Shown here: positions 11,256 through 46,502 of the stretch, one piece after another
Position numbering within the stretch: position 1 is the first letter of the stretch
Layout of the letters: each line of letters begins with the position of its first letter
NCBI GenBank assembly: GCA_951406725.2
Contig: OX597819.1
Coordinates: 135,408,001-135,472,000, forward strand
Reading direction: 5' to 3'
Length of the DNA: 64,000 bases
From: Octopus vulgaris
Taxonomy: Eukaryota
Position numbers and translations under genes: made by a program
Notes under the pieces: generated by a model
Told to the model about the DNA's origin: nothing
The model's database searches: none
Seen by the model: the letters and a program-made list of their open reading frames with translations, nothing else

Positions 11256-11289
<34 letters not shown>

Positions 11290-11430
11290 GGAAGAAAGAG
11301 TGAGAGAGAGAAACCCTAGGGAAGGGGAGGGATATATTAATGTATGAGGAAGCAAAGAAAGTGAGAGAGAGAGAGAGAGACAGAATGCGTGAGAGAGAGA
11401 GAAAGAGAGAGAAAGAGAGAAAGAGAGACA
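10730..11430. repeat. GA-rich tandem units (cctagggaaggggagggatatattaatgtatgaggaagca)
   Basis: The motif recurs four times here and about three times, inverted, at 42600-43070. Confidence 0.85.
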
Positions 11431-18478: not shown

Positions 18479-18557
<79 letters not shown>

Positions 18558-19429
18558 GAAGGAAGGTTTGAAAATGCAATTTAAAAGATGTTTATTTACG
18601 TAACCGGTTTCACTCTTTGGTAAAAGATTGTCAAAAGTAACATTGAATATTATGGATTCAAAAAAGTTTTTTTACATAATTGCCACATTGAATATTATGA
18701 ATTCAAAAAGGTTTTTTTACATAATTGTCACATTACATGTATAAATATAGTGTTTGGTAACAGAGATATGTTAAGAGCATAAAGAAGTTCAATAGTGTGA
18801 TGAGAATATTTGGAAAAATTGGCAGAAAGGAATAAGACAAATATATTATTGGAAATTTGGTTGCGTTAATTATTGGTTGTCGCAAATTGTCACATTACAT
18901 GTATATATATATACAGTCTTTGGTAGAAAGGACATGTTAAAGACATAAGGAAGTGCAATGGTATGGTGAGAAAATTTGTAATATTGACAGAAAAAATTAA
19001 AATGGATATTTTATACATCTCAGAATATTTTGAATTGAAGGCGAGAATTTGTTTTTACTGACCTGTTCGCTTTAGCAGAAATGTTGAATTGAGAGAAAAA
19101 ATGTGTACCCAGTTTTGTTTTGTTTATGGTCCCCCTTCAAGCATCAATGATTTTGGGGTTATCGGGAGGTGAGTATGCGAGTGTGAACAGATGTGTCCGT
19201 GTGCCTGCAGTATCTGGTCAGACGGCGTCTGTTTGTCACACACATATACACACACACACACAACACAACACACACATAATATACAAACACACAACACATA
19301 CACACAACACACACACACACACACAGAACACACACATAGACAACGCACCCACATATATAATATACACACACAGCACACAAATATAACATGTATTTATATA
19401 TAATACACACACATATATAACACACAGGC

Positions 19430-21448
19430 AAAAACAAAACCTTAGACAAATTTTGCGATTACATCTCAAACTTCCCTTATGGTGAACTCCCACAACCTAA
19501 ACTCAAACCCAACACCAGTAAAAGAGAATGGGAAATCATCCATACGCTACGAGACAATCATGACGTCACAATAAAGGAAGCTGATAAGGGTAGTACGGTC
19601 GTTGTTATGAATACTGAGCAGTATAAAAACTCTGTATCTCTCCTTTTAGAGGATACAACATACTATGAAGGAGTAGTCGACTACCAGCAATCCAAAACAA
19701 TGACCAAACTGAAGGCACTCATTTACCAACACCGGAATGACTTGACAGCAAAGGAATGCGACTACATTACTAAATTTAATTGCAAAACCAGCACACTCTA
19801 TGGGCTTCCAAAAATACACAAGAGTCAAATTATCTCAGAAGCTTGCAAAAAGTCCACTTCAACCTGCATCACTATACCACATCCCACTGATCTCAAACTG
19901 AGACCAATAGTGGCAGGCCCAAGTTGTGAAACACACAGACTTAGCAACTTTATAGATATCATCTTAAAGCCAATACTGAAACACATTCCAAGTATTGTAA
20001 GAGATGACCTGGACCTATTAAATCATCTCCCCAAACATACTGATAAAGACACTTTAATCGTTTCCTTTGATGTAATTAATCTTTACACCACAATCCCACA
20101 TGAATATGGACTGGAAGCCATTAAATTCTGGCTGGATAAATATCCCAATGAGATTCCGGAAAGAATTAAAAAAGAATTCATAATTGAGGGCCTCAAATTT
20201 ATTCTGCAAAACAACTTCATGTATTTCCACAACAACACTTACAGACAGGTCTCAGGAACTGCAATGGGTACGAAAGTTGCGCCTACCTATGCAAACCTGG
20301 TGATGGCCTACCTGGAATCACATATCTATGAAAAATCCAAATATAAGTACGGCCAGTCTTTCCACAAATACCTGTTGGAGAACTGGAAACGCTACTTAGA
20401 TGATTGCCTCATCCTATGGTCCCACACACTCGACCAACTTATAGACTTCAAAAACCTTATCAACAGTGTAAATAACAACATTCAATTCACAATGGAATAT
20501 AGTCAGGACCAACTCCCTTTTCTTGACATCCTAATCATTAAAAAAGGCGTCAACATTGAAACTGACATCCATTACAAACCCACTGACTCTAAACAATACC
20601 TTCTATTCACCTCCAATCACCCAAAACACTCAAAGACAAATATCCCCTTCAACCTAGCGAGAAGAATCTGCACTATTGTCTCAAATGACACAACACGAAA
20701 TAGAAGACTCCGGGAACTAAGGGCAATTCTTCTCGAAAGACATTACCCGGCATCACTAGTAGACAACGGAATAGAACGGGCCAAATCAATCAACACTCAA
20801 GCCCTACGAAAACACAAAAACATCCACAGTACAGTAAATAGCCTCCCCTATCTCTCAACACACAACCCAAGGAATGCAGAAGCTTACACTATTATATACA
20901 ACAACATTCCACAACTAAATCAAGACCCACGCCTGAAAAAAATACTGGCAGCTCATAAAATAATAAAAAGTAAGAGACAACCTAAATCCCTAAAAAACCT
21001 CCTCACCAACGCAAAATTACACAACACAAACCCACCGCCCACCATCAAAAAATGTGGTCGCCCCAATTGCAGGACTTGCATCCACCTCATTGAGGGATCG
21101 ACGTACAAGTTCCACTCGGGACACACATTCATCATAAAAAATAATTTCACGTGCGCATCAAAAAATTTACTCTACGTCATAAGGTGTGAAGGATGCCACG
21201 AAGACTACATAGGGCAAACGAGCCTTACCCTCAGAGAAAGAATGACAGTTCACCGACAACAACTGAGGGACCCCTCCACAAGACAGATACCACTAAGTGG
21301 ACACTTAGACCTTTGTGCACACAATAAGTCCCCCAAATTCTTAGTCTTCCCACTATACCAATGCTCGGACAACACCACAGACCAAACACGAATAAATAGG
21401 GAAAGTAATCTTATTCAAAAATACAGACCACAACTAAACATACTCTAA
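19430..21448 (+). CDS. Penelope-like RT + Zn-finger linker + GIY-YIG endonuclease (open, N-terminally truncated)
   Basis: IKEADKG motif upstream of the called ATG, LYGLPKIHK, RPIV, SFDVINLYT, GTAMG..AP, RYLDD, FLD, KCGRPNCRTC, LLYVIRC...YIGQT..LRERM..HR; no internal stop. Confidence 0.93.
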   Translation, partial: KNKTLDKFCDYISNFPYGELPQPKLKPNTSKREWEIIHTLRDNHDVTIKEADKGSTVVVMNTEQYKNSVSLLLEDTTYYEGVVDYQQSKTMTKLKALIYQHRNDLTAKECDYITKFNCKTSTLYGLPKIHKSQIISEACKKSTSTCITIPHPTDLKLRPIVAGPSCETHRLSNFIDIILKPILKHIPSIVRDDLDLLNHLPKHTDKDTLIVSFDVINLYTTIPHEYGLEAIKFWLDKYPNEIPERIKKEFIIEGLKFILQNNFMYFHNNTYRQVSGTAMGTKVAPTYANLVMAYLESHIYEKSKYKYGQSFHKYLLENWKRYLDDCLILWSHTLDQLIDFKNLINSVNNNIQFTMEYSQDQLPFLDILIIKKGVNIETDIHYKPTDSKQYLLFTSNHPKHSKTNIPFNLARRICTIVSNDTTRNRRLRELRAILLERHYPASLVDNGIERAKSINTQALRKHKNIHSTVNSLPYLSTHNPRNAEAYTIIYNNIPQLNQDPRLKKILAAHKIIKSKRQPKSLKNLLTNAKLHNTNPPPTIKKCGRPNCRTCIHLIEGSTYKFHSGHTFIIKNNFTCASKNLLYVIRCEGCHEDYIGQTSLTLRERMTVHRQQLRDPSTRQIPLSGHLDLCAHNKSPKFLVFPLYQCSDNTTDQTRINRESNLIQKYRPQLNIL

Positions 21449-21998: not shown

Positions 21999-22327
21999 AC
22001 ATCATAAGCGGGAAGTGTAACCTCTCGAAAGAGCTGTTCTTCACTCCTGCTCCGGAGCGTCGGCTGCGGGGTCATTCCGAAAAGCTCTACCTGCGACGAT
22101 TTCATCTCAATCGAAGGAGAGGAGCTTTCTCCGTCCGGGTTGCGGATCCGTGGAACAAGCTGCCAGACGAGATGGTGAAGATGCCGACGACCGCTTTGTT
22201 CAAAGCCTCCCTGGACCTCAAGTGGCCTGAACTCTTTACATGAACACCACCCTGTACTTAACTCCATGTCCCCCTACATGGCCTTGCTATTTGCTTTTGA
22301 GCCAAATTAACTAACTAACTAACTAAC
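21999..22327 (+). mobile_element. Short 3' fragment of the CR1-type LINE nested in the Penelope 3' microsatellite
   Basis: Near-identical to 54403-54730, including the (CTAA)n tail; it keeps CGA where the long copy has TGA. Confidence 0.92.
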
Positions 22328-22387: not shown

Positions 22388-23923
22388 GTGTGTGTGTATG
22401 TATGTGTGTGTGTATGTGTGTGTGTGGATATATATTTGCATGTATATGTGTGTATAAACATGTGCATTATTTGCATGCGCATTGTGTATATGTATATTGT
22501 ATGTATGTGTATTGTATATGTATGTGTACAATTAGGTGTATATGTGTGTGTATGTGTGCATTGTATATATGTATATTGTAGGTGTGTTATATATGCATGA
22601 ATACATGTATATACATTGCATGTGTATATATATGTATGCATTGTGTATGTGTATGTTATGTGTGTGTGTATATATATGTTATATGTATGCGCACGTGTAT
22701 ATGTATACATTGTATGTATGTATATTGTGTGTATATGTGGTATATTTATGTATGTGTATGTAAACACTATTTATATGTATATATGTATATATGTATATGC
22801 ATTGTCTATATATATATATATATTATATGTATGTATTGCGTATGTATATTGCATGTATATATTGTGTATGTGTATTATATACATGCTGTGTATGTGTATC
22901 GTATGTATATATATGCTAGGTGTATTTGTGTTATATTTATATTATGTATGTATGTGTGCGTGTGTTGTGTGTGTGTGTGTGTTGTGTGTGTATGTGTGTT
23001 ATATATGTGTGTGTATTATATATAAATACATGTTATATTTGTGTGCTGTGTGTGTATATTATATATGTGGGTGCGTTGTGTATGTGTGTGTTCTGTGTGT
23101 GTGTGTGTTGTGTGTATGTGTTGTGTGTTTGTATATTATATGTGTGTGTGTGTGTGTTGTGTGTGTGTATGTGTGTATATGTGTGTGACAAACAGACGCC
23201 GTCTGACCAGATACTGCAGACACACGGACACATCTATTCACACTCGCATACTCACCTCCCGATAACCCCAAAATCATTGATGCTTGAAGGGGGACCATAA
23301 ACAAAACAAAACTGGGTACACATTTTTTTCTCTCAATTCAACATTTCTGCTAAAGCGAACAGGTCAGTAAAAACAAATTCTCGCCTTCAATTCAAAATAT
23401 TCTGAGATGTATAAAATATCCATTTTAATTTTTTCTGTCAATATTACAAATTTTCTCACCATACCATTGCACTTCCTTATGTCTTTAACATGTCCTTTCT
23501 ACCAAAGACTGTATATATATATACATGTAATGTGACAATTTGCGACAACCAATAATTAACGCAACCAAATACCCAATAATATATTTGTTTTATTCCTTTC
23601 TGCCAATTTTTCCAAATATTCTCATCACACTATTGAACTTCTTTATGCTCTTAACATATCTCTGTTACCAAACACTATATTTATACATGTAATGTGACAA
23701 TTATGTAAAAAAAAACCTTTTTTAAATTCATAATATTCAATGTGGCAATTATGTAAAAAAACTTTTTTGAATCCATAATATTCAATGTTACTTTTGACAA
23801 TCTTTTACCAAAGAGTGAAACCGGCTAAGTAAATAAACATCTTTTAAATTGCATTTTCAAACCTTCTTTCGTATATAATTCCACTCGTGCGATACTACAC
23901 AACTCAACTTTTATATATATATA

Positions 23924-25085: not shown

Positions 25086-25509
25086 TTATATATATATATA
25101 TACCAGACATTCTATTCAGGGCTAAAGATATCTATGAATATACCAGATGTTATTAAAATACTCTGTAAAGCAATGGAATTGTTTAGGGAGGTGATTCTAT
25201 GCACAACAATAACAACAACAACAATTGAATATTTCAAAGTTTATATTTGTTTCCGAATGTAATTTCTGGTTACAAGGGAGCCAAACCAGTAAAGTGGTCT
25301 CTATTTGGTTGACAGATCTGCTAGAAATAATAACCAAATTTACCAAAATTCACACTTCATCATCTTAAGGTAGGACAAGTGGGACAATGTGGTTCTGAGT
25401 TTTCTACATTAGCAATAAAGGCAGGATGGTCCCGGCTGGGAGACATTTGATCATAGATCATTGTTTGGTCATGGTTGATCTGGTGACTAAACAACATTTA
25501 CGCAACAAT

Positions 25510-25715
25510 TCACTCTTCAAGTAATGATAGACATTTGAGTGCAGTTAAGCACTCAGCTTCCGCAAGAGCTGCCCTCAATGTATCCACCGTAACTTCCTGC
25601 GGATCACAATGTGTTGACCAGTAGAGCAGCATCTGGAAGCTCTGCTCTTGAACATTACCAAAAAAGTCATGCCGGATAATTCCCAGTTGGATACTTTTAA
25701 TCCCCCAAAATATAC
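25510..25715 (-). CDS. Paralog B terminal exon: Death domain, C-terminal part
   Basis: Acceptor cttcaacAG, phase 1. Reads GIFWGIKSIQLGIIRHDFFGNVQEQSFQMLLYWSTHCDPQEVTVDTLRAALAEAECLTALKCLSLLEE*; homologous to 480-685. Confidence 0.9.
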
Positions 25716-27877
25716 CTGTTGAAGATAGAACAATAAGAAATTACAGGAAAAACATTAACAATAATATAAAAGTTGTTGTTATAAATATAACAAAAAACTA
25801 TATCGATAGAGAAATACAAAATAGTAAAGAAACCTGAAAAATATAAGACATTATTTATTTGAGAAAATTTATGGGAAATAGATTTCAGAAGTGTTTGGTT
25901 AATCAAAAGTGTATCAGAACCTAAAGATTCAACATAGACGACAAACAGACACACCACTTGGTCCATTCATCCATTCATTTTCTCAGCACAGTATTTCTAG
26001 AACGGTTACAAGGCTAGAGTTCTCAGGCACCACCCAAATAATTTCCAATCAGAAGAAACCATCTTAAGACTTTCCAGTTGGATTTTCATGTGTGACCATT
26101 TGGGTTTATCTCATTCGTGGTTTCCTCATGGTTGCTTAAGCTTGCTATCCTTTTCTGTAAAATTCTAATCGCATGTCCATCATACTAGAAAATGTGTACT
26201 TGACATGTTCAATGCTTGAAATAAGTCATTTGTAAGTGTGATGCCTCACCTGCTCTGACTAATTAATATAAACTGTTAGGTAAACAACACAAATTATGGA
26301 AGACACTGGCTTAATCTCTCTGGATGCATGACACATAATGACGATATCTTTCACTGGATCAAAGCCACAATTTATAAAGAGGTCGACGGAAAGTAGACAG
26401 AACTTGTTCAACATCTACATCATTCACTTACGGACAATTAAGCCCTACATGTGAGTGAAGTGTGATCCACATCCAGATGGACACTGGACAGTGGAGAAGC
26501 TACAGGTCACTAGAACTACAACTTGTCATCTTAAAAAGGACCATTTAAGGATGTCGTCCTATGTAAAAGACAGAGACGTCACACTTGGAACGTCTTTAAA
26601 CTTAAGTCTGCTGGATTAACACAGATATTTGACGATACTAAGTGATATGGTTCTGTTGAGTGTCCTCTATTAAGCTTCTTCTTTATATTGAAGCAATGTG
26701 GTAAGAAGTCATTCCAGTATGGTGATTTAAATTGAAATTAATTATCAGCTTCCTACACAAGAACCTATAATTGATTTCATCAGAAATCAATGTTGTTGAT
26801 TCACATCGTGTTTGGTGAATTGATTCTCTTTCTCAGAATAATCAACAACCATTCATTTTTTATGGCATTCCTTGGTAGAAACAGCAACTTGAAAAAGTCT
26901 TAATAATCTTTTCTGCCTGGAGATATCGGACTTGTAATTTGACGAATCTTCATATGATTTATTGTAACAACGAGACTTAATAGCAATAGGTTTACAGTCA
27001 CAGAGGGACATCATAAGCATTGTCCTGAAGACACAAACTGACCATAACGTGTCCACTGTTAATATCCTTAAAACTAATACATTTATTTTATCTGGAGCTG
27101 GACTTGAACCTTTTCACCAACTGAAGAAAGATGTCGAAGACTCCGTAGTTGTGGCTAAGATGAAACTTGACCCATTCGTGTTGAAAGAGATGCTTCTGGT
27201 TTTGCAATAGTTGCATCAGTAAATCAGGGAGGAAGGCCTATTGATTCTTTTCTCAAATGTCTCGCAGAATTCTGAGTTAAAACATCTTTAAATCGAGAAA
27301 GAAACTTCCCCAATCACAAAGTTAATCCGATATTAGGAGCTTTGCTTAAGTTGAAAATGATTCAACCATTTTGCTGGCGTATGTCATGTGATTAAGACGT
27401 CGTCATTCTAATATGGTGATATGAGTTGCAATTACCTGCTTCTTACACAATGGTCCTAACAATGGTTGTTTCAAGAAGAACCTAACTCAAATTCTTACGG
27501 TGGAATAAACAAAATGTATTCTGGTTATTAACTTTGCTTCCTTACAAACACCAAGCAGTAAAGTTTGTAAAAAAGTAAGACAAACAAAAACATTGTCATT
27601 AGCTCACCTGTTTACCCTTAAACAACAACCTGCTTTAGTCCACTTCTTGCCAAAGACAAAATTGATTCTATTGTGTATCATTAATTATCCATTTTACCAA
27701 TGACGCTAACCTCGATTACATTAACTTACATTAATATATTTAATAGAATTATTTTACAGATAACATTTCAAATGGAAATTAGGAATGGAACCTGTTCTCA
27801 GTCAATCTGACATACAAAAACTTTAAGTAAAACTAACATTTACAGAAATCAATTAGATATTATTATTTTCTACTCAC

Positions 27878-27949
27878 CTACTTGCCACCAATCACTTCCC
27901 AATTGCCGTGCCACTTTCAGGAGATCCTTCTCCTCCAGTTTTTTAGTAT
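27878..27949 (-). CDS. Paralog B exon (72 nt, phase 1-1): Death domain N-terminal helices
   Basis: tttcAG / GTGAGT sites. DTKKLEEKDLLKVARQLGSDWWQV-G joins the terminal exon in frame to give the VARQLGSDW..VG Death-domain signature. Confidence 0.9.
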
Positions 27950-28111
27950 CTGAAATAAATAATTCCATGTTATACATTTTATAGTAAAATTACTTAATGG
28001 GGACCACAACTGTTTTCCCCGACATTTTCAAACGTTTTACAACGGTACCATACAATAGCTCAATATCCAGCTAATCTTCCTAAATCGCTTTTATTTATTA
28101 AGGCATCCTAC

Positions 28112-29330
28112 ATATGATGGTCGGCTGAAAAGTTCATAGTCTGACAAAGATACTCTCAACGAATGTGAGCAAATGAGGGTTTTTTTTCAACACAATCCCC
28201 CTTGAGGTCCACGCAATTCTTCCGTTGGTATTTCAGTTCTTGAATCCCATTCGTGAACAAGCTTTCATCCTGTTGCTCAAAAAAGGTCAGCAACAGCAGA
28301 TATGATGACATCGTCAATGCGATGACGATTCCCAACCGAGTATTTTTGAAAGTTGATGGACAAACGATAGTCAGAAGTGGGTAAATCGAGGGAAGAAGTA
28401 AGGTGATCAACTAGTTCAAAACCAGGGCCATGCTCAACAGCCATTGATGGCAAGGACGTACGTGCTGGGGCATTGTCTTGATGATACAAAGCCCTTTGCA
28501 TTAGTTTCCGGGCATTTGGTCTCGGTAGTATTTTGTAACTGCTTCAGTAAGATGGTACAATACCCTCCATTGATGGTAGAGCCTGGCTGAAAATAATCAA
28601 TAAACACAATGCCTTTTGCATCACAAAAATCTGAGACTATCCCCTTCCATGCAGATGAAACGATGTCGGCCTTCCTTGGAACAGGTAAAGACGTGTGTTT
28701 CTACTGCATGGATTATCTTTTTGTCTGAGGCTCAAAGTGTTTAATCCAACACTCATCGTGGCTTAAGAAAGGTTCAAGGAATTCAGCTGAGTCTGCTTCA
28801 AGCAATGTCGGATTTTAGAATAATGTGATCAGTCTAGTGTGCTTTTGACCAGGTCTCAGAAGACATGGCATCCACCAAACAGAAACCATTGTCATGCCAA
28901 GTGCAGAATATTCTCAAATCTGTCACGGAAAATGCTAATACTATTGGCTATTTGATTTATAGTCAATCACCCGTCATCCATCACCATGCAGTGAAAATAT
29001 TAAATGTTTTCCTCGGTGGTGAAAGTAGCAGGACGTCCAGACATTGGGTCCTTTTCAATACTCTCTGTTCGCCTCCTAAATTCAACTGTCCACTTTTGCA
29101 CAGTTGATAAAGTTGGAGTGTCATCACCTAATATAGCAACCGTGTCAGCATGATCGCCCTTGGGGAATAAACCCTTTTTCTGCACGATGCCATATTTTGT
29201 CCATTTTCAAAAGAGGTCGCTACTAGTCACATTACAAGTCTTCTTTGAACATTCAGTTGTCAATTTACGTGGAATCAAAAAGTGCAGTTATTAATTAGAA
29301 GTGTTGAAATTAATGCATGCTAGATTTTAC
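28112..29330 (-). mobile_element. Degenerate mariner transposon (intronic)
   Basis: Fragments TVQKWTVEFRR...EKDPMSGRP (HTH), HQDNAPA and SLDLPTSDY (YSPDLAPSD-like); TIR-like tatgatggtcggctgaaaagttcatag at the left end only. Confidence 0.85.
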
Positions 29331-29439
29331 ACGCTACACTCTACATTTGCACAAACCTCATTAATTTCATATAACTAATTATCCACACGTTATGGCGGTG
29401 AAAAATATCTGAAATGATACACAAGAACGGATGCTCAAG

Positions 29440-30800
29440 AATATATACGCAAGACGGAGATATAGATCAAACTGGACGCAGCAAATCTCGTATTTTCCGA
29501 GAGGTCCTCACTTATCTATTGCTTATAACCCATCCTCGCTTTCGGCCATGATCTCAATGCCTCTATTCTTATTGGACAATGAGGTAGTGTACCATTGTCC
29601 TAAACATTTTACATGTTTCTTTTCAACATTTGACATGGTTTCACCTGCAATTTTGAACTTCATCTGATGACTTTGACAACTGACAGACTGCATTACTTAT
29701 TAGCTTTAAACCACACTCTTGACCAAGTAATTAGTCCATCCAGTCTACCCAGGACGATTTGTATATCCTTTTACTCTCTTGTTATTATTGTTATATCATC
29801 AATTAATGCCTTCTCATGTGATTTCACTTGAGCCATTTCTTCTGATCAATCTGCTGATCTAAGTAGCTTCTCCATAACAAGCTCAAATGACCGATATTGT
29901 GCAACCTACAGGTATTTCAATTTCAAGACGATCCCACTCTGTTGTGAAATTTTCTGCCATGAACTGCATTTTGAAATTGTTATAGCAGCTCTTCATCAGA
30001 TAATCTTTTCTTCCAGTATATAAAAGAAGTCCATTGCTTTCATGAACAACTGATTCGAGCTATCTACTGAGTGGTACAGAACCAGAAGCATTAGCCAGAT
30101 CAAACCATACAACATTCAACTCCTTTTTACTCTCCTGTCTGTCTTGTGTGCATCCCAGATTGAAAATGCTTGTTCCACACACCCACGAATTCCGGAGATG
30201 TCAGCCTTCTGGACATTTCCCGTCCTTTAGACATGATTTTGTAGATATGTAGCTGATTCCTTTAGCAAGTAAATCCATGTAAATCTTGTCATCTACAGTC
30301 AGGATTGAAATTGGTCTGAATTGACCCATAAATTTTACTTTAGCTTCTTTTGTTAATTAAACTATTCTGCCTTGCACCAGGCATCAACAGTTCATTTTTA
30401 TGCTATAACACTCTAACTGGAAGCTAAAGCTTATAACATAATTGCGTACAAAACTTGTACACTTTGTCTTTATATGGTATACAAACACCTTCTGGGGCGC
30501 TCTTTCCTCTTGCTGAAATCAACCAAGCTGAAATATATGATTACTGCTTTCGATGGTCATTTCAAATTGTCCACGAGTACGAATGGTTGATCTCACTTTG
30601 GGTCACTGTAGGTCTCCTGTATATGGCCGTCCAGTCCATTTTCAGTATATTTTCCCCAACCATATTTAGTATCTGCAAACGGTTTTCTAGTAACCTCATG
30701 AGGGTTCTTAAGGATCTCTTCTCTAATTTGCTTACTCTCCTTTCTTCTGCGAATGTGTCTGATATTTCTTAGCATAAGTTAGAAAGGGAAGTTTAATATT
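29440..30800 (-). pseudogene. Fossil non-LTR retrotransposon RT (RLE-type, NeSL/HERO-like)
   Basis: Minus-strand fragments KSAPEG..IPYK, QFRPISILTVDDKIY, QKADISGIRGCVEQ and ELNVVWFDLANASGSVP; many lesions. Confidence 0.7.
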
Positions 30801-32104
30801 CTTGAAGACCAAACAATCTTTCTAGGGTTTTTGGTACAATAAAATGTACCCAGGACCCTGTACAATGTGGTTGATGTTTGGAAAGACATACCACCATGGA
30901 AAAGTCGGAATATTGCAATGAGATGTGTTCCTCAACCAATGACGGTGGATAGTAATTCTGAATAAGAACTGACTTGGATAGTGACCATCCATCCATCCAT
31001 CCAATTGATAGGAGGATGGAAATCAGACGATGTCATTTATTGTATTGTATCTTGCAGCAAATATTTATCCTGAAGAGAGTGAGACAATGGTTGTCCCAGC
31101 AGGAAACCAAAGTCTTCTTCTTGGACAAAGACAACGTTTAGTGCATGTAATGCTAGATTTACTTTCAGTGAAAAAAGTATGTTCACACTTGGAACAAATT
31201 TCATTGTAACTCTGCGAGATTATGAGAGACATCTGCCTAAACAACAACAATAACAATAACTGCCTATCCATAAACAGTAAGAATGAAAAACAAACAAAAT
31301 CCTAATTCTCCTGCTTACACTTAACCCATGGCCTGCCATGAGCCCCATTTGAGAATCTAATAAAAATAGTTTCACTGCCGGTTATTCGCTGTATTTTAAG
31401 TGAATTGCTTGCGTATATTGCATTTGCAGAGGTGTGTTTAACAATATTTAGTAGTTAAAGTTTGTCATTATTAACTCTGGCTAATTCTAGAGGACATTTA
31501 TATCATAAATCGCAACTTTTGAACTACAAAAATATTGACTGTTTTGAAAAGTTTTTTTTTCTTGCACTTCCCTTCTATATCATTCATTGATATTTCATAC
31601 ACATTCGCATTTGATACTATAGTTTCTGAAAAACTAAAATCTTTATTATTGCCATTGAATAGAAAAGGATAAATATGTTTTTTGTCAGCGATTCCCATTT
31701 GGGACTTATCGAAACAATTATCATAATTTCCAAAATAATTCACATATGAAGAAAATTTAAATGCTATATATGATTTTTAACTCCTGAGACACCAGGCAAA
31801 GCCAAAAAGTATGAATAAAAGTTTGGAAGTTAAGTGTTAAACAGCATTATTAATTTCGTGATCAAATGACAGAATGAACTCTATTGTGTCTTCTAATTTG
31901 AACATTATTACCAACAGTGCTAACCTCAATGGTTATTCCATAAACTTTCAATAATATCGATATCTTTAATAGAACTATTATACAGTTACTCTTTCAATCG
32001 TAAAATCAGAATGTAACCTGTTTTCAGTTATTCTTTGAAGCACAATATGGCCAGGGGAAGTAAAACTTATAAAAATCAATTGGCAACTGTTATTTTATAC
32101 TCAC

Positions 32105-32161
32105 CAGTTTCCTGAGATGCAACCTCTGTTTGTACACACTTGTCCTCAGACTTTGGAGACT
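32105..32161 (-). CDS. Paralog B micro-exon (57 nt, phase 1-1): ESPKSEDKCVQTEVASQET
   Basis: tttcAG / GTGAGT sites, open frame, in phase with neighbouring exons. Confidence 0.8.
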
Positions 32162-32264
32162 CTGAAATATATATTTACAAGTTTTAGAATTAATAATAGA
32201 ATTTCTTTATCGTTATTTTAAATAAACTCTTTCTTGTTGTTGTGAGACATTCAATTCCTTTGAG

Positions 32265-32695
32265 TCAAGTAAAACCAACAACCAGAAATCACGAATCAAA
32301 ATCAAAACAAGATCGAAATCAAAATGGAAATTGTAATTATGGCCGATGCCAGTGCCGCCCGGCTGGCACCCGTGCCGTTGGCACGTAATAAGTAACATTC
32401 AAGCGTGGTTTGTTACAGTTCCTCCTGACTGGTTCCCTGTGCCGGTGGCACGTAAAAAGCACCATCCGAACGTGGTCGATGCCAGCCCCAACCTCAACTG
32501 GCTCCTGTGTCGGTGGCACGTAAAAGCAGCCACCACACTCTCGGAATGGTTGGTGTTAGGAATGGCATACATATGTGGAAACCTGGCCAGATCACATTGG
32601 AGCCTGGCGCAGCCTACTGCCTTGCCAGTGAAATCGTCCGACCCATGCTACTATAAAAACGGACGTTAAACGATGATGAAGATGATGATGATGAG
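32265..32695 (+). mobile_element. SINE-like interspersed repeat with internal ggcacgtaa units and a (GAT)n tail
   Basis: Three internal repeats of gccggtggcacgtaaaa; ends ggacgttaaacgatgatgaagatgatg; interrupts the duplicated exon units. Confidence 0.6.
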
Positions 32696-32945
32696 TTCCG
32701 TGACCAAATGACAAGATTAACTCTATTGTGTTTTCTAATTTGAACATTATCACCAACAGCATTAACCTCAATGGGTATTTCATAAACTCACAGTAAATCG
32801 ATATCTTTAATTCAATTATTATACAGATAATCGTTCAATTTGAAAATAGGAATGGAAGCTGTTTTCAGTTATTCTTTCAAGCACAATATACTCGGGGGAA
32901 GAAAACCTTACAGAAATCAATTGGGAACTATTATTTTATACTCAC

Positions 32946-33023
32946 CAATTGCCTGAGATGCAGCCCCTAATTCCTGACATGTAGCCTCTGTTTGTACACA
33001 CCTGTCCTCAAACTTTGGAGCCT
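32946..33023 (-). CDS. Paralog B micro-exon (78 nt, phase 1-1): KAPKFEDRCVQTEATCQELGAASQAI
   Basis: tttcAG / GTGAGT sites; a duplicate of the 57-nt exon, including the flanking intron sequence. Confidence 0.8.
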
Positions 33024-33274
33024 CTGAAATAAATATTTCCAAGTTTTACATTTAATAATAAAATTTCTTTATCTTTGAAGAAGCGGTTGCAGGCTTTTTC
33101 TTTATCTTTATTTTTATTAAACTCTATCTTGTTATTGTGAGACATTCAATTCCTGTCGTTACTTGTCAAATGTTGACCATTATGGTTTTGGTCAATATTT
33201 CTGTACTTTCTACAGTGGTCCCATGTAATAGCCCAATATGTCCACAATAAAACAGACTAACATTCCTAAATCCA

Positions 33275-33308
<34 letters not shown>

Positions 33309-34723
33309 AAGAACACATTAAATATTCCAACAATGTACCAATTATCTCATTTAATTAACACTTGATAACAGTTTTCTCTTAGCTTTGTCTTTCTTTTCTT
33401 ATAACTGTGCCAAATCTATGGCATGGCACAGCCCTGTCATCTCTAGAATTCACTAATCAACATTCCTCTCCAGTTAAGTAAAGACATGTCCTTTATGTGC
33501 ATACCCTCCACGCTGCACACAATCTGTCCCCTAAAAATCATCTCCAGAAGCCAAATTCCATACACCCTTCCCCAACATGATCCCTAACAAGATATAAAAT
33601 TTAAGGTGAGGGTACACGATGTCCCTATGAAAAAATAAGTTTACATTTCATACATACAAATGTAAGAGAGTTAATGAATTATAGCTTATTAATTATCTTG
33701 ATAATTGGGTATATATGTGATACAATGGCACTGTGCTTGACGGTGCAATATTAGATATCAATATAGATTGTATATAATCTGAGTAAAGAACGTATAACCT
33801 TCATTACAATGAATATGATTGTGTCTCAGCACAGCTAATATTATGGTAGTTCCATGAGCAAACGAAGAAAGATATAACCAAGTCCACTGCCAAATACTAA
33901 TGATTAATTCATTTCCTGGTCAAATAACAATGACTAACTTCCATTAAATAATTTGAACGCAACAATCAAGACCAAAGGGTGAAACACTCAGAAAACCGTG
34001 CCTCTTTTAGCATTAATATCATCTAAAATCTAACAAGAGTGAGAAAAAGAATGACTATATGGATGGTAAATGTTGTTCAAACAATGTAATAAGTGTATAT
34101 TATATATAGTTACAAACAAGGATTTGTGAGATCATGTCACACATGGAACTCATATTTAATTCCTATCTTTATATTTTATGTCAACACCAATATTTTGTTT
34201 AAATGTAAACAGATGTACACCGTTCAATACTAAATTTAATATTTAATCAACGTTAATGATCATTATACTTATACTCTTAGAGATTTGATTTTTAATCCTT
34301 TTAATTTATAACAAAGTTATTCTGACCTGAGACATTCAGGGTACATACCTAAACAACATATCATGACAGACATCTGGCTACATAAAAACAACAATAACCT
34401 ATTAGAAATCTTAGGAAAGACCTTAGTAGCAAAAGAAACAAAAAACTTTCTCATTACCTCACCTGTTTACAAATAAACAACGAAATGTTTTAGTTCTCTG
34501 TCCTAAAAGACATCATTAGCTCTATTGTGTCTTCTTATTTAACCATTTTACCAACCACGTTAACCTGGATTTTATGAAATTTCAGTGGAATATTTATGAG
34601 AATCATTTTACATCTAATCTTACAAATAGAAATTAAGAACGGAACTTGTTCTCGATCAGTGTGACAAGCAAAATCACTGAGGCGAAGATAAATGTTATAG
34701 AAATCTATAAAATACTGTTTGTT

Positions 34724-35040
34724 GTGGAAGCGCAACGGCCCAGTGGTTAGGGCAGTGGACTCGCGGTTGTAGGATCGCGGTTTCGATTCCCACACCGGAC
34801 GTTGTGAGAGTTCATTGAGTGAAAACTCCTAAAGTTCCACGAGGCTCCGGCTGGGGGGTTGTAGCGATCCCTGCTGTTCACTTTCTCCACAACATTATCT
34901 CACTCTTTCTTCTGTTGGCCTGCTCACTTAGCCAGCGGGGTGGCGTCATTTCAAGGCTAAAATAATGCGAAGCGCATTGTAGCCATTGATGTGTAGCAAC
35001 ATCTGATAGCCTGGTCGGTCACAGTGATAACGGTGATAAG
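34724..35040 (+). mobile_element. tRNA-derived SINE
   Basis: GGCCCAGTGGTTAG A box and GGTTTCGATTCCC B box; related minus-strand copies at ~61780-62320. Confidence 0.75.
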
Positions 35041-35089
35041 GTACTGTTAATTTATAGAAATCTGTAAGGTACTTTTAATTTATACTCAC

Positions 35090-35140
35090 TAACTGCCCCT
35101 GCCATCATCTTGGCTTCCTTCTCTTTAAAATTTTGACTCC
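35090..35140 (-). CDS. Paralog B micro-exon (51 nt, phase 1-1): GSQNFKEKEAKMMAGAV
   Basis: tctcAG / GTGAGT sites, open frame; flanks homologous to the other micro-exons. Confidence 0.7.
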
Positions 35141-36464
35141 CTGAGATATGTGTTTTCAAGTTTTATACATTATAGAAAAATCTTTATCTTTATTAATAAT
35201 CTATATTATTGTGAGCCATTCCTATCATAAATGAACAACTGGTGACCCTTATGGTTTTGGTCAACATTCTGATAGATTCAACAGTGTTACCATTTAATAG
35301 GTCAATATTTAGGTGCACAACAAAATAGCCATCTAACCTTCTTAACTCTTAAATCTCTAATCTTCTTAAATCTCCCGCTGCCTATTAAGACATCCTACAT
35401 AATCTAACAATGGCCAACTTCGATGACCAGCTTGGTTGACATTAGAATCAAGCAGAAGATAGGAAAATGTTGGTTTGGGAAGTCTAGAGTTGAGAGAACG
35501 ACGCCATGACATAGATCTGGCATAGATATAAGAAGCGAAAGAGAAAGCGGAGAGATTAACAGTGATATCAATGGAAAATTAAATGAGTAGTTGTGTGTTC
35601 GAGTCTGATATTTCAAAAGCTGAATCGAAGTTCCAGCAGCAGAATTGGGTATTATCACTCTTACAAGACAGAACAAAATAGCCATTCAATAAAAGAAATT
35701 TAATGATCAATATTCGAAAACAGAGTTAATATTTAATTTTGTTTTATTTACTTTCTACAGTATATATTCTAAGTTGAGACCTTCTGTGTATATACCGCAA
35801 GAGATGATATCTCATATCAAGCAATTATTTGAGATCTTTTATAAGATGATAGACCATTATGTATTTCCGGAGGACAACTTTATAAAATACTCATGTCGTT
35901 TTTTACAAGTTGCCAGTATTTACACCTACACAGAACAACCGATTTAACAGTCAGACTTTCTAATGTTGGTTCTCAAACTCTCACCTGAGATTTTATGATT
36001 AAATATCTTACTTCAGCAAAGCTAAAAATGATGTTCTTGGGAATATCTTTGTCTTTAATCATCACCTTCCCTAGATACTGATAAATCATTAATCAACTTT
36101 GATGACTCACAATCAATTGTTAGAAATTGGTGTTTACTGATATTTCAGTTAGTTGCAAGCTATTTTGCTATATCATTCATTAGTCTTGTGCTGCAGCATG
36201 ATTCATTAGTCTTGCGCTGCAGACAGGACCCTCTTGAAATGTGACAAGTCTTCTATTTGGATAAAGACAATGTTTAGTGGATGTAGTGAGAGATGCACTA
36301 TCACAGAGAAATGAAACCTGGAACATCTTTCAACATAAATCCGCCAGATTATGGCAGATCTGGGTCTACACGACAATTCTGAAGTACATTAAATACCATA
36401 TATACGTATTATATATCATAAAGTCAATGAGACAAACAGACAGATTATCAAATAGTTTTCTTAC

Positions 36465-36607
36465 CAAATTCTCTCACGCCACTTATTGGCTGTTGACAAG
36501 TGGGGCATAATTCAGACTTAATTTTCATATAACATTCACGACACAGGGCGGTATGTCTGCAGGGTTTGAATTCTGAAGAAGCATACGTAACTCGACAATA
36601 TGTACAT
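36465..36607 (-). CDS. Paralog B exon: RING-HC finger (C3HC4, MIB/IAP type)
   Basis: ttccacAG / GTAAGA sites, phase 2-1. CTYCRVTYASSEFKPCRHTALCRECYMKIKSELCPTCQQPI = C-x2-C-x11-C-x-H-x3-C-x2-C-x8-C-x2-C. Confidence 0.9.
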
Positions 36608-37222
36608 CTGTGGAACAAGATACAAACACATATCCCGACAATAATTTTCTTTTATAATAAAGATTACATTGTGTACCTGTTCAGAGTAGAGAATATTACG
36701 AGACATTACAATGATGAGTAAGACTACATTAGAAAGATTTCTTTTAACAATTACATTCAAACAGATTTTTGTGTATACGAACTGTGCACACATGCAAACG
36801 TTCACACACACATACGCATGCACACCCCCGCATGCACACACACACAAAATAAAAACAATAACCAGTGCAACACGCTTGACTTTCAGAAATATTTTGCCCT
36901 GCTCACAATCGTTGGCTGTCAGGACACCGCATGCTTCAGAACATTCCCTACTTCTTCAAATTCCCCAAAACTACACCTGATCTACCTATGCACCTTTTTC
37001 CTCGTTATTACTCTTTAACTGTTCTCTTTTCTGTCAGTCTCTTTCATTCTTTGTATTTTGCATGATCCAGCTTTCACTGCTGTCTTTACTTGACTAAATG
37101 CTGCTTCTTGTCCCCTCTTTAAACCTTTTCCAGTTAGTTGTAGTAGACCTGTGCTCTAAACATGATTACATGCAAAATAGAAAACATAAAGGTTTATCTT
37201 GCCATTGTCAGGAAATACGTAC

Positions 37223-37397
37223 GGTGGTGGTAAAAAGGTTTTTAATTTTTCTTTCAAATTTGTGTCCTGAATAAGGTCCAGCGGAATCACTTTCTTTCCA
37301 TTTGAGTGGTAAAAGTTGGCTCCAAAATGAAATAGGTATGTTACTATTCTACATCCACTTACAATTTTGCTTAAAAAATTGTAATGGAGTATCCTGT
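37223..37397 (-). CDS. Paralog B exon: terminal ankyrin-like repeat preceding the RING (5' boundary uncertain)
   Basis: IVTYLFHFGANFYHSNGKKVIPLDLI resembles an ankyrin repeat end. The donor CC|GTACGT is phase 2 and splices in frame to the RING exon (TFLPPP-CTYC). The frame stays open up to ~37530. Confidence 0.7.
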
Positions 37398-37537
37398 CTG
37401 TAGAAAACTTATATTGCTTTATGCATCCGCGGAAAGCGGTGTATTTCAAATTGATATAATGCATGCATTGGTTGATTAAATGGGGCTGCTTGAAACAGCC
37501 GTAGTGCACTAATGTCTGGACATCATTGTTACTTATT

Positions 37538-38545: not shown

Positions 38546-39679
38546 AATAAGCTGCAAAGGCTTAATGAAGAAAATGGCCATTCAATGTAATGTGAGGATT
38601 AATGAGAATTTTTATCAAACAGAATATTTTTACATAAAGAAGAAAAGAAAGGAAATAATTAAAAATACAAAAGATGAGATTAATGAGAAGGAAAAAGGCA
38701 GATTTGAAACTAATTTCGATGTTTCTTTAAAATATTTACAATTTTCGAAATATTTATGAAAACAAAATTGTGTTCGTATATTCTTTTACATATTGCATTC
38801 ATTTGGCTCGGTCATGCTGGGGCACCTCCTTAAATAGTTTCCTTAATCAGATCAACGCTTATAAGTCTATCAGTTCCTTTTACGGAAGCGACGAGTTGCG
38901 ACGGAGTAAACGAACCAACACCGGTCTTTACACGGTGATGCGAGACAACGTCAAACACGAACACAATCACACACACAACTACACAACGGGCTTCCATTCT
39001 TTCCAGAATTGGTCCATCCAAGGGTATAGTACTAAACACTGAAAAACACTTGCCTAATGTACCATGCACTGGGATTGAACTAGAAACCACTTGGTTGCGA
39101 AGCAAATTTTTTAACTGCAAAGTCACATCTTGCCTACAAAGTCTTTCCATGTTTAGAATGAAACCGTCTCCAATTTATTTCCAGTTGCGAGAATTATGTG
39201 TAACTTTGAAAGTTGTAATGTTCGCTACGTTTAGAGAAATATTAAAGTTATTTTGAGCTATTTCGAACCAGACACTCAACACCACCGCCATGTTTTTTCC
39301 CAAGTATAGAGAACCCAGAACCACCTTGTCTTTAAGATGATAAATTTTGAATGGAGTAGGATTCGGGTAATAATTATAGCAGATCTTGGTTTGGCTCCCT
39401 TTTTGCTGGAGATTAACTTTGGAAATAAAGATAAACTTTGAAATTTCATTTGTTGTTGATGTTGTTGTTGTAAGCCCCGACCTCTCCCTAAACACATCCA
39501 TTGTTACATAAACATTTTAAAAACTCTGTGGAATTTTCAAGAAAAAAAAATTAAAAATGAAATTCAATTTTGTGAAACTTACTTAAAATGCATATTTTCC
39601 TGTCAAATAGAACCTCCTTGTCGACTCGATTGTTAGTAAAATACGGTTTCTATTTCTCTCTGCCAATAATTTGCCATAA

Positions 39680-41200
39680 GGCTTCATCCAAACTCTAGAA
39701 AGTGACACTTATAGCTGAGCACGGGACAAGAATTGTGTTGGAAGATATATTCCAATTTGTTTAAATGTCTGTCCCTGTGCTTTGTTGCATGTCAAGGCAA
39801 AGAATGGTTCCACAGGAAATTGTTTGTATGGTAACTATGAACGGGAACTCCATTCCTTTAGACCCATTTGGAATCCCTGAGAATACCAACATTCATCCTA
39901 CAAAAGAACCACAAGCAACCCCAGCAGCAATAATAAGATCTTGGAAGCAGATAATAACGTAGCCTGTGTCATTGCAATGGTCTTGTTTAGCATCTAAATT
40001 CTTCAAAAACCTAATGCAGCCTCTTGTCTTTAGGGTGAGAATATGTCCATGGAAACTCTGATGGTAGGAGTTTGTTGATGAATTTGATTAGGTACAGAGC
40101 TTCGTTATCAACTGTATCTGAGCTTCTGTATATCTTTACTTCGCCAAGGATCCTGGTCAACATGAATTCGTTTACAAATTGTGATATTTCATTTGCTGGA
40201 GTAATAATGGGTCTGTTTGCAAGCCACATGGGGTCTGTGAAGTTATTTGCAAGACAACATCACATAAACTTGACAGGCCAAAGTTGTAAAGCAGGTTGAT
40301 TTTGGATGCACCTAGACTTTGTTCGACAGAAATATCACCATTTCCAGGATCAAAATGGTGATTAACAGACTCTTTTTCATCAGAATGACCTTTTGTAAGA
40401 AGTCTTAGATTGGTTCCTATCTTCACTATTTCTACTCAATCCTCAAGAAAAGATCTGCATCAACAAATTATAATCTTCCAAGATGACATAACTGCAAGAA
40501 TTTGTTTTCTATCACCAGACAGTAATATAGTAAATTCACAAACAGGTTTGTTACAGTCTCACACATCATGCAATCTCCTTTCAAGGCACTCACAGAGATG
40601 CTTAGGCCCCATCCTGGTCCCATCGATAACTAAGAGACCAGATCGAGGCACAACTTCTCTTGTGGCATCTCTCTTTGTGAGTCTTAATGTTGATTTTGTT
40701 GTCTCACTGAAAGAAATCTTGGACATAGAATGAAGAACTCTCCCTTTCAGAAGCAAAGTGGTTGCAATAGCAGACGTGGCAGTAGCAACTATCAAGTATG
40801 ATGTTGATCACATAGGTTTTCCCTGTGCCACCATTTGCATTTAAGAACAGAATTCTTCCTTCTTTTACTATTTATGGACCTGATAGCTTTATCAAAATCT
40901 AGTCGTTGTTCAATGTCTAAAGTTGGCAGAAGTTTATTAATACATTTTTTTGCCTTAAAAATGGTTTCTTCCCTAAGCCCAATTGGAATATTAGCTTCTT
41001 CAACAATTCTTGTATCTGGTCAAGGAAGACCATTGTGGCTGTAGATATCGAAGCTGTCAACTTCAAGCTTCCTTTGGATATTTATAAGAAAAATGTTCAC
41101 TTTCCGTTTAGAGACGATTTCTTCATTGTTCTGGTGCATATTTTCTTCAGCGACATAATTCTTCCAGAAAACAGGACGATCACCTGGCATGCATATTTCA
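39680..41200 (-). pseudogene. Helitron Rep/PIF1 helicase fossil
   Basis: Walker A LNANGGTGKT, ATATSAIATTLLLKGR, the WLANRPIITP..N segment, NKAQGQT and a motif VI-like SLSRV segment; frameshifted. Confidence 0.85.
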
Positions 41201-41519: not shown

Positions 41520-44500
41520 CCATGGCATTCACTTCTTTCCTGTTCCATTCACATCCCTTCCGGTCTGATCCCTTTCCTCTCGTATTTGACTCTCACATTT
41601 TTGCAGCTTAAAATAGGACGACAACCGGTGCACGGCTGCACTAAACTGTACTAGCCTTGCATATTCTTGCTCTCTCCTCTTTGTATTTCTCAGGCACTGG
41701 CTTATCTTTGGAGCTTTCTGACCAAATGCTAATACGAAAAAAGAAATTTAATAAATTTCCAAGAAATTAAGAAAAAAAATGATAGAAACGTTTCATACTT
41801 TATCATGTGAGATTTGACTGTTGCTTCTAGCAGGTGCAACCACAATCGAGGCTGTGTGACGATTGCAGGGAGAAGTGAAGCTAAGGGGTTAGAATCGTAA
41901 TATTAAAAAAAGCGAAATTTTTAGATGTCAAACGAAAAACGAATTAGTGATGAGGAGAAGTGTTCGATATTTATTGATAATATATTATAAACACTTCGAT
42001 CTATTATTTGCATTAAATCATATTTGGAAATCTTCACAAACTGCGCAGAAAAACAGGTTTTATTTCGCATAAAAGAAAACAATAGAATTTAAAGTAAAAG
42101 GGATGTAATAAGAGTTATTATTCTTACCGTTTCAACGTTGACTCCTCCCACTACATCGTATACGTGTCTCCGCCCATTTTTGCTTCCTTTATTAACTCAT
42201 ACTCTTCCTCTATTGGTAAATGTATTTATTATTCTCTCGCGCTCTCTCCCTCTTTCTATGTCTCTCTCTCTCTCTTTCTCTTCTCCTCCGTCTCTCACCT
42301 CATCATAAATTGCCCAATGCTTCCCCCCTTCCCTTGCTTTCTGTCTTAACTCCCCTGCTCTCTTTCTTATTAAACACAAATAGCATTTTCTTTGTCCCGC
42401 CCTCAAAACATATCCTCCCACTTCTCCCTCTTTCTCTCCTTTCTCTCTGCACCTCATTATATATTCATGTTTAACCACCCTGCCTGCCTTACTATATCGT
42501 TCACCTCATCCTCTCCCTCACTTCCTAAACGTATATATATCAGTTCCCACTCTCTCTATCTCTGTCTCTCTCTCACGCACTCACTCACACACTCCCTCTG
42601 CTACCTCATATATTAATATATCCCTCCCCTTCCTTAGGTTTTCTCTCCTTTTTCTTTCCCTCTCAGCACCCCACACATTACTGTATCCCTCCCCCTCCCC
42701 TAGATTTCCCTATCCCTCTTTTTCCTTTCTTTCTCTCTCTCTCTCTCACGCATTCTGTCTCTCTCTCTCTCTCTCTCTCTCCCACTCTCATTCTTTCTCT
42801 GCTTCCTCATACATTAATATATCCCTCCCCTTCCCTAGGGTTTCTCTCTCTCACTCTTTCTTCCTTTCTCTCTCTCTCTCTCTCTCTCACTCTCTCACGC
42901 ATTCTGTCTCCCTCTCTCTCTCCCTCTCATTCTTTCTCTGCTTCCTCATACATTAATATATCCCTCCCCTTCCCTAGGGTTTCTCTCTCTCTCACTCTTT
43001 CTTCCTTTCTTTCTCTCTCTATCTCTCCCACCTCCTTATATCTTACCCTCTCCCTCTTCCTCTCCTTTTATCCCTAAGAAACCTTACTTTCTTACAAATA
43101 AATTATATTTTCAGATTTACCTTCAAATTTCTCTCTCGCTAATTATTTTACCAGAAGCTAATTATTTAACTAACCATTAATGACATAATTACTGTGTAGT
43201 TCTTAATTGAGCAAATTAAATAGCCGAGACATTGACGGACAATTTAAGAAGCATTTATTCAAAGAATCCTCCTACACCTGGTTTGACATCATGCTAGAAA
43301 TAACAGCCCACTACACTCAAAGTTGCTTTGTTTTTCATACGAAATTGAAAGACAATTTAAGAAGCATTTATAAAACTTTTTCCCGGATCTGGTCAGACTT
43401 CTTCCTCGAAAGAGAAACCAAATGAAGAAGCGTCTATAAAACGTATTGGTGGTCTGGTATCTTGCTAGAAATAACAGCCCACTACACTCAAAGTTGCTTT
43501 GTTTTTCATACGAAATTGAAAGACAATTTAAGAAGCATTTATAAAACTTTTTCCCGGATCTGGTCAGATTTCTTCTTCGAATGAGAAACCAAGTGAAGAA
43601 GCGTCTATAAAACGTATTGGTGGTCTGGTATCTTGCTAGAAATAACAGCCCACTACACTCAACGTTGCTTTGTTTATCATACGAAATTGAAAGACAATTT
43701 AAGAAGCATTTATAAAACTTTTTCCCGGATCTGGTCAGACTTCTTCCTCGAATGAGAAACCAAGTGAAGAAGCGTCTATAAAACGTATTGGTGGTCTGTT
43801 ATCGTGCTAGAAATAACAGCCAAGTATGTTCAAGTTTGGTTTTGTGTTTCATATGAAAATGAAGGACACTTCGAAACTCTTCTCTCTCCTTCCTCATTCT
43901 GTATTAATACCTCATCCTTCCCCTCTTCCTTTCTCTAATACATGATAAACTCCCTCTCTTATCACACACATCATTCCCTCTCCTCCTCTACTCCTCTCCC
44001 TCCCCCTCTGTCACTTATTTATGTTATTGTTTAACCCCGCCTCCCTCATCCCTCGTTTTCTCTCAACTCTTACTCTCCCTCCCTCACAAAGCATATATCT
44101 CATACATCATCTCTGTTTCCTTCCCCCTCCCTCAATTTTTGTCTCTCTCCCTCTTTATCACCTCATATCTCATACTCTCCCTCTACCTCTTTTCCGCTCC
44201 GCCCCACGTCACACTCTCCCTCTCTTTCTAAACCTATGTATCATTTTCTCTCTCCCTCCACCTTCTTATATAATATTCTCTCATTCTCTTACCTCATTCT
44301 TTCCCTCCCATTCCATCTCCCTCTCTTTCTCTATGTCTGTCTTTCTCTCTCTTTGCTCTCTTGATTTCTCTATTTCAGTCTCTCTCTTTCGCCCTCTCGC
44401 TTCTTATGTCTCTCTCTCTGTCTCCGTGTCTCTGTTTGTCTGTCTCTCTCTTTCTCCCTCTCTCTATTACCTTATTATATATTAATGCTCCGCCTTTTTA

Positions 44501-44790
44501 CTCTTTGTCTCTCATCTCATACTCCTCCTCTCTTCTTAACATTTATTTCTCTAATCCCTCCTCCTTTCTCCTCCTCTCTCTCTCTCCCTCTCTCTCTTTC
44601 TTCTCATCATTTTTACAGAATTACGTCGCCTTCCTCTCTATCTCTCTCTCATTCTTTCTTTCCTTTCTGTCTTTCTTCTTCCTTCATTTCTCTCATTCAT
44701 TCTTTCTTTCCTTCTTACTTTCTGTCTTTCTTTCTTGTTTCTTTCTTTCGTCGTTTTCTTGCTTTTTTTCTTTTTTTCTTTCTTTCTTTC

Positions 44791-44835
<45 letters not shown>

Positions 44836-46468: not shown

Positions 46469-46502
<34 letters not shown>

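Follow-up and report, generated by a model that had tools for sequence, protein, structure and literature searches.

Does the genome of Octopus vulgaris encode a Mind bomb (MIB)-like ubiquitin ligase fused to a Death domain (DD)? This question is raised by a locus on contig OX597819.1 (GenBank assembly GCA_951406725.2, positions 135,408,001 to 135,472,000), a stretch of 64,000 nucleotides (nt) that we call the window and number from its first letter. A sequence-only reading of it had described, on the minus strand between 25510 and 37530, a hidden spliced gene for an ankyrin-RING-Death protein. It had interpreted the product as a lineage-specific MIB-derived ubiquitin ligase recruited to Death-fold signaling and belonging to a multigene family. 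We propose that the seven exons in the window are the 3' end of an octopus ankyrin-RING-linker-Death gene that has lost its front and is likely dead, and that the intact members of the family would be ankyrin sensors signaling via the DD rather than active ligases. We give this proposal an even chance of being right.

Re-splicing bore out the seven minus-strand exons, with GT-AG sites at all six introns and compatible phases (Table 1). From 37341 to the stop codon ending at 25510, the spliced chain comprised 241 codons with zero internal stops. Introns 1 to 6 measured 615, 1324, 2066, 784, 4155 and 2162 nt, in phases 2, 1, 1, 1, 1 and 1. Exon 2 alone matched the Pfam family zf-C3HC4_3, and scanning exon 1 alone or exon 7 alone against Pfam gave no match. 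The three domains announced earlier thus fared differently: the RING was found by Pfam, the Death domain by the family profile but not by Pfam on exon 7 alone, and the ankyrin part was not confirmed. Just the tail of the last ankyrin repeat is left in this copy, and neither the family hidden Markov model (HMM) nor tblastn detected another ankyrin exon in the 64-kb window, including the upstream region from 37.5 to 64 kb. Nor is the family hidden, as NCBI models of it already exist under "MIB2-like" and similar names.

Splicing was assessed on contigs of four presumed RNA runs of a related organism, which differ from the window by about 2 to 4%. Their joins report the splicing of the orthologue or of close paralogues, not the expression of the window allele. 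The expected six junctions were recovered in part. A join between 32161 and 32946 corresponded exactly to intron 4 (CT..AC) in two runs (X3 and X4), and joins 36607-37225 and 25713-27881 corresponded to introns 1 and 6 with few letters changed; for introns 2, 3 and 5, no join was present among the matches listed. Two runs (X1 and X3) also contained a join between 33023 and 36465, which links exon 2 to exon 4 and skips exon 3. At the other end of the gene, a contig of run X4 covered exon 7 and the 3' untranslated region (UTR) from 25266 to 25713 with 7 differences.

The front end of the window copy is truncated at 37341. Compared to the intact-front relative P0111 (CAJ1099217.1), the window was identical at 36 of 39 positions below 37341 and at 1 of 40 above it. 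The contigs departed from the window at this same nucleotide in all four runs aligned to exons 1 and 2, as well as in X1 and X9 aligned to the whole locus. Where printed, their loose ends past 37341 were identical to each other and encoded the continuation of P0111, whereas the 20-nt intact continuation was not found in the window. Separate contigs began at 37340 in three of three large runs, and many contigs covered the adjoining repeat. Two other accounts of this end could be dismissed. The open frame above 37341 does not encode a second ankyrin repeat, the tblastn extensions that suggested one being chance matches, and neither a frameshift nor a change in (AT)n length explains exon 1. Because its front end is cut off at 37341, the window copy is probably a dead fragment and not a working gene. 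P0111 and P0109, its closest relatives with an intact front, are frameshifted in the last DD exon, so that both of these near copies look broken, at different places.

The element at the break is likely a Helitron-like end, as suggested by its hairpin (-9.1 kcal/mol) and by the upstream PIF1 helicase remnant; the end does not read CTRR, and a 5' TC end was not located. The repeat end above 37341 also weakly matched a repeat lying beside a Pif1 remnant at 17.6 kb (79% over 38 nt, E 0.002). Alternatively, the break could be an assembly error, that is, a chimeric join at the repeat, with the gene intact in the animal. Indeed, no contig bridging 37341 was among the matches listed in either run set of four, the intact continuation is seen in three organisms, and the downstream exons carry no stop, frameshift or broken splice site. 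However, the join coincides with a repeat end that carries a hairpin and lies downstream of a PIF1 remnant, the contig runs come from animals other than the source animal, and other members of the family are also fragmentary or frameshifted (P0111 and P0038), which fits fast birth and death. We therefore consider an assembly error improbable. Even less probable, to the point of being very unlikely, is that the truncated copy is expressed from the repeat-derived sequence, starting at the ATG at 37464, as an ankyrin-less RING-linker-DD decoy or as a constitutive DD seed. The frame is open from this ATG to the stop, and the family does include short DD-only or RING-DD models (P0007 and P0039), but the first 41 codons would consist of repeat DNA, and the DD core of exon 7 carries a Trp at 25705-25707 (-) where the other rows of our DD alignment (A2) carry a Leu.

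The predicted Death domain proved to be a true Death fold. The family DD profile (A2, which includes exon 7) matched the DDs of PIDD1 (1.1e-10) and RIPK1 (1.6e-10), and the Pfam Death family scored above cutoff in P0007, P0011, P0012, P0014 and P0035. In agreement with this, the top Foldseek rows retrieved with the modeled DD of P0011 were DDs (TM 0.65 to 0.84, best E 0.002). Exon 7 itself was 78 to 93% identical to the C termini of four Octopus proteins; three have ankyrin repeats and a RING and are annotated as MIB2 or MIB2-like. RIPK1-like DDs of octopods scored 78 to 95 bits, compared to 27 to 48 bits for 16 multi-DD outsiders. The DD clade also holds P0047 of O. bimaculoides (1283 amino acids [aa]), an adhesion G protein-coupled receptor (GPCR) of LRR-GPS-7TM layout with a terminal DD. 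P0063, P0064, P0073 and P0055, from Octopus and Argonauta, are RIPK1-like DD adaptors that lack a kinase; the N/I/G-rich stretches preceding the DD in P0063 and P0064, which we take to recall RHIM motifs, had no Pfam match.

The family set was assembled by a DD profile search of 1.84 billion representatives and three word searches. The resulting DD clade (support 95/93) comprised 56 rows, namely, two window exons and 54 database rows. All 29 named database rows belonged to Octopus (O. vulgaris, O. sinensis and O. bimaculoides), and the named O. vulgaris members were spread over 7 contigs. This supports the earlier view of a multigene family. The second window exon (480-685) belongs to a paralogue that lies tail to tail with the window gene, shares about 50% protein identity with it and has its upstream exons outside the window. 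An 82% match to the 3' UTR of this paralogue (880-950) was found at 39389-39461 (+), possibly left over from another copy oriented the other way.

Both sequence and modeled structure support a descent of this family from Mind bomb. Residues 1 to 324 of the P0012 model matched the ankyrin domain of MIB1 (8v0e_B, residues 460 to 794) with a Z of 29.5 over 296 residues (root mean square deviation 2.8), residues 15 to 58 of P0170 aligned with 8v0e 338-381 (E 0.0037), and in the Atlas the two-RING sister P0015 was placed at 0.98 with mib1-like clusters. When the RING-DD part was used as the Atlas query, all leads stayed below 0.9, and generic ankyrins dominated the matches of PDB sequence searches with P0013 and P0111. 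No Pfam match to MZM or REP was obtained in any family member scanned; full-length models (390 to 730 aa) start with ankyrin repeats. In P0011, the framework of the internal ankyrin repeats was near-fixed, with changes mostly around the TPLH helix.

We then compared the two halves of the proteins. Over 23 members, identity in the last ankyrin repeat and RING was uncorrelated with identity in the DD (rho -0.03). For instance, the window gene shared 39% of the former and 93% of the latter with P0001 but 71% and 41% with P0010, and P0013 and P0026 shared 39% and 99%. In four of four approximately unbiased (AU) tests, with groups drawn from the tree of the other module, the data of one module rejected the clades of the other (p 3e-5 to 1e-81). 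By these comparisons, paralogues have reshuffled their RING and DD modules. Chimeric gene models may account for part of this pattern, but the module combination of the window gene was read from contiguous DNA and is also present in P0111.

A further peculiarity of the gene is its series of "CVQT" linker exons, which are most simply explained as tandem copies of the first DD exon (exon 6). The intron DNA around exons 3, 4, 5 and 6 was homologous (68 to 80% by blastn) and could be aligned across both splice sites. Flank z-scores reached 5 to 13 upstream of exons 3 to 6 and 20 to 45 downstream of exons 4 to 6, including 20 to 22 for the downstream intron of exon 6 against those of exons 4 and 5, and they stayed below 3 for exons 2 and 7. 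As to the direction of copying, we take exon 6 as the template because it encodes DD helices 1 and 2, which align with PIDD1 and RIPK1.

Exons 4 and 5 spell candidate LC8 binding motifs. The motif of exon 5 is an exact match to the LC8 consensus [D/S]-K-x-[T/V/I]-Q-[T/V]-[D/E] given in excerpts of PMC3078936, and exon 4 has R in place of K; excerpts of PMC6607443 back D at position -4, K/R at -3 and E at +2 in such motifs. By a strict definition, an LC8-type motif was present in 5 of 32 linkers; by a relaxed one, it was present in 16 of 32, compared to a mean of 0.55 and a maximum of 4 in 2,000 shuffles, a count in which one linker was mis-cut and several rows were devoid of a RING and whose significance is overstated by the shuffle since paralogues are not independent. 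In the modeled relative P0012, the linker (residues 376 to 409) had a pLDDT below 50 and is predicted to be disordered. In a sub-branch formed by P0003, P0005 and P0009, a linker made of a 7-residue PSTSQ-type repeat stands in place of the LC8-type cassettes.

The cassettes might nevertheless be neutral by-products of unequal crossing-over, the LC8-like motif having arisen by chance from the DD helix 1 sequence. Members carry anywhere between 0 and at least 5 of them, drift is common among the copies (VKT, VQA and VKK), and the DD exon already provides D/E and K/R at positions -4 and -3. On the other hand, 22 distinct units keep Q0 in 19 cases and T+1 in 17 and leave position -2 free, which is the LC8 pattern (the units were chosen by positions -3 and -1, so these two are uninformative), and KETQT, KGVQT and KEVQT occur in separate lineages. 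We regard a neutral origin as a serious contender, although on the less probable side.

Whether such proteins could act as ligases depends on which RING they have kept. Octopus sister genes (P0015 and P0176-8) have the order ANK-RING1-RING2, and RING2 was found in these alone. All 29 RINGs of the DD-type rows were nearer to RING1 than to RING2 of these sister genes. Because of this, the DD is placed in the position of the terminal RING, with RING1 retained. In MIB1 and MIB2, the terminal RING alone was active (MIB1 RING3 and MIB2 RING2; published, Cao et al.), and according to excerpts of PMC7815719, MIB2 requires RING2 and not RING1, a RING1 mutant still ubiquitylating cFLIP-L. I and V were both absent from the first E2-contact position of the 29 DD-type RINGs (Y in 9, W in 8, F in 6 and L in 6), which was I in four of four RING2s. 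At the positions that we map to V965, P993, I994 and R996 of MIB1, the window RING reads Y, P, T and Q. Moreover, the His zinc ligand is missing in P0001, P0013 and P0180. Since the RING kept is the equivalent of RING1, the terminal catalytic RING is replaced by the DD, and the E2-contact positions are degenerate, ligase activity of the ANK-RING1-DD members is doubtful. Of the proposed "MIB-derived ubiquitin ligase", the derivation from MIB is therefore retained, on the ankyrin structure match and the Atlas placement, and the ligase is called into question.

We thus propose the following scenario. A MIB gene would have lost MZM and REP, leaving ANK-RING1-RING2, after which two DD exons related to those of octopod RIPK1-like adaptors would have replaced RING2. 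Copies of the first DD exon would then have given rise to putative LC8-binding linkers, restoring the dimerization that MIB gets from its terminal coiled-coil RING. In intact members, ligands would be bound by the ankyrins, LC8 would pair the chains where motifs exist, and the contribution of RING1 would be structural or weak. Binding at the ankyrins would bring the DDs together, which would nucleate or block complexes with RIPK1-like adaptors or with receptors that carry a DD.

Several observations weigh against this proposal. The grouping of the family with the kinase-less RIPK1-like adaptors of Octopus and Argonauta had weak support (85/88), the match of P0012 to the MIB1 structure was tied with matches to ankyrin-1 and a DARPin, and the trees contained no full-length MIB1 or MIB2. 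Some database models may be chimeric annotations from tandem clusters. Because members without a linker (7 of 32), with a PSTSQ repeat (two) or with drifted motifs (several) occur, LC8 binding is not essential to the family; the non-independence of the paralogues noted above counts on the same side. In addition, excerpts of PMC6607443 state that many like charges disfavor LC8 binding and that 7 of 19 predicted sites bound. Finally, the eight zinc ligands are retained in most members, including window exon 2, the linchpin Arg is retained in 11 of the 29 DD-type RINGs (two rows mis-parsed at that end appear as Lys), and MIB1 RING1-2 was assayed with a single E2.

These RING features, with zinc ligands retained across three Octopus species, also suit a different view, in which the intact members are active E3s. 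RING1 would have gained or regained activity, LC8 or the DD would provide the dimer, and the DD would replace MZM for docking RIPK1-like substrates, so that the MIB2-RIPK1 brake on cell death would be built in. According to excerpts of PMC5912950, human MIB2 binds oligomeric RIPK1 via MZM and inhibits it; MZM is absent from the family members scanned, and the family DD is most like those of RIPK1 and PIDD1. Yet the retained RING is the one that is dispensable in MIB1 and MIB2, and the degenerate E2-contact positions and lost His ligands described above argue in the same direction, so that we consider active E3s possible but rather unlikely. More speculative still than either view of the intact members, and in our opinion unlikely, is that octopuses have built a combinatorial system of intracellular receptors out of Mind bomb. 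Dozens of paralogues would recombine variable ankyrin arrays, several RING1 and DD types, and a tunable number of LC8 exons, derived from the DD exon and adjustable by exon skipping. The DD clade shared with RIPK1-like adaptors and an adhesion GPCR would then form an octopus-specific DD network, in which LC8 valency would set the activation threshold.

The family can be set beside several known systems. As in MIB1 and MIB2 (PDB 8v0e), the ankyrin array ends in register with the C terminus of the MIB1 array and is directly followed by a C3HC4_3 RING, and octopus sister genes retain a second RING. Unlike Mind bomb, the family has no MZM/REP, linker cassettes and a Death domain replace the terminal catalytic RING, and dozens of shuffled paralogues contrast with the one or two conserved genes of Mind bomb. 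The DDs of RIPK1 and PIDD1 and of octopod kinase-less RIPK1-like adaptors (XP_052833014.1 and GAB1602126.1) are its best DD sequence matches and share the same fold, but the family DD is fused behind an ankyrin-RING part, with no kinase, LRR or ZU5. Ankyrins, ANKDD1A/B and NF-kB p105/p100 also combine ankyrin repeats with a DD. Like the octopus family, they couple an ankyrin sensor to a signaling or death module; they are not known to carry RING1 or an LC8 linker, and the octopus family has no NTPase domain. Mollusc BIR-DD-RING inhibitor of apoptosis proteins (IAPs; the oyster "BIRC11" type, PMC8917759) likewise form an expanded molluscan family with a RING and a DD in one chain. However, they carry BIR domains instead of ankyrin repeats and have the DD before the terminal RING, that is, in reverse order, and presumably have a separate origin. 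No BIR match was found in the family members scanned, and IAPs are least expanded in Octopus (PMC8917759). Multivalent LC8 clients such as ASCIZ, as described in excerpts, share tandem D-K/R-x-V/T-Q-T motifs in a disordered linker, whereas the putative motifs of the octopus family sit one per exon, in phase 1-1 exons that are copies of a Death domain exon.

In the open-access literature, we found no description of an ankyrin-RING-Death architecture or of this octopus family, and a text search of PMC11463336, PMC13230822 and PMC4199593 found no mention of it. Each component is familiar, and NCBI lists the proteins under generic "MIB2-like" names; for the architecture, no paper was found in that literature. 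Little of the intracellular immune sensing of cephalopods has been mapped, octopus IAPs are few (PMC8917759), and a large, reshuffling ankyrin-RING-DD family is a concrete candidate for a sensing role. The family also offers a natural test of the role of MIB RING1 when the catalytic RING is gone, and it clearly illustrates how an exon of a folded domain is copied into a would-be linear binding motif. The window copy, though probably broken, is of value because its introns record the origin of the linker.

Table 1. Coordinates of the family exons and of the elements at the break, numbered within the window
Feature	Coordinates	Strand	Remarks
Exon 1 remnant (3' part)	37341-37223	-	End of the last ankyrin repeat (MIB-type), then the helix preceding the RING
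Exon 2	36607-36465	-	C3HC4 RING, 8/8 zinc ligands, equivalent to MIB RING1; PF13920 E 5.4e-10
Exon 3	35140-35090	-	Degenerate copy of the DD first-exon cassette, without LC8 motif; upstream flank z 5-6 vs exons 4-6
Exon 4	33023-32946	-	Linker cassette copy; DRCVQTE (LC8-type, K replaced by R); 25/25 identity to P0026
Exon 5	32161-32105	-	Linker cassette copy; DKCVQTE
Exon 6	27949-27878	-	Death domain helices 1-2; family HMM E 3e-8
Exon 7	25715-25510	-	Death domain helices 2-6 and stop codon; 62/67 identity to P0001 and P0002
3' UTR	25509-25171	-	Also present in the tail-to-tail paralogue (71% to 758-984 over 238 nt)
Repeat end fused to exon 1	37342-37535	-	Likely Helitron-like; hairpin 37391-37350; in-frame ATG 37464
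PIF1 helicase remnant	40562-40807	-	Probably Helitron-type; PF05970 E 1.2e-11; 3.2 kb upstream of the break, same strand
Terminal DD exon of the paralogue	480-685	+	Family HMM E 6.5e-20; 99% to P0038 over 68 columns

The remainder of the window is rich in other elements. Regions 5955-12437 and 41522-47153 form a large inverted duplication (77 to 99% in pieces) with a 171-bp satellite and long AG/TC tracts. An intact 675-codon reverse transcriptase (RT) open reading frame (19421-21448, +; RVT_1 E 9e-8), presumably Penelope-like by its appearance, lies between 684-bp inverted repeats of 97.8% identity (18557-19236 and 23188-23871). A long interspersed nuclear element (LINE) at 50586-54503 (+) has its endonuclease and RT in different frames, and 328 bp of its 3' end are repeated at 22000-22327 with 98% identity. 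Intron 5 of the window gene contains a mariner-type transposase remnant (28280-29300, -; Transposase_1 E 2.6e-5), and apparent RT remnants, judged by eye only, were noted near 29.5 to 30.7 kb.

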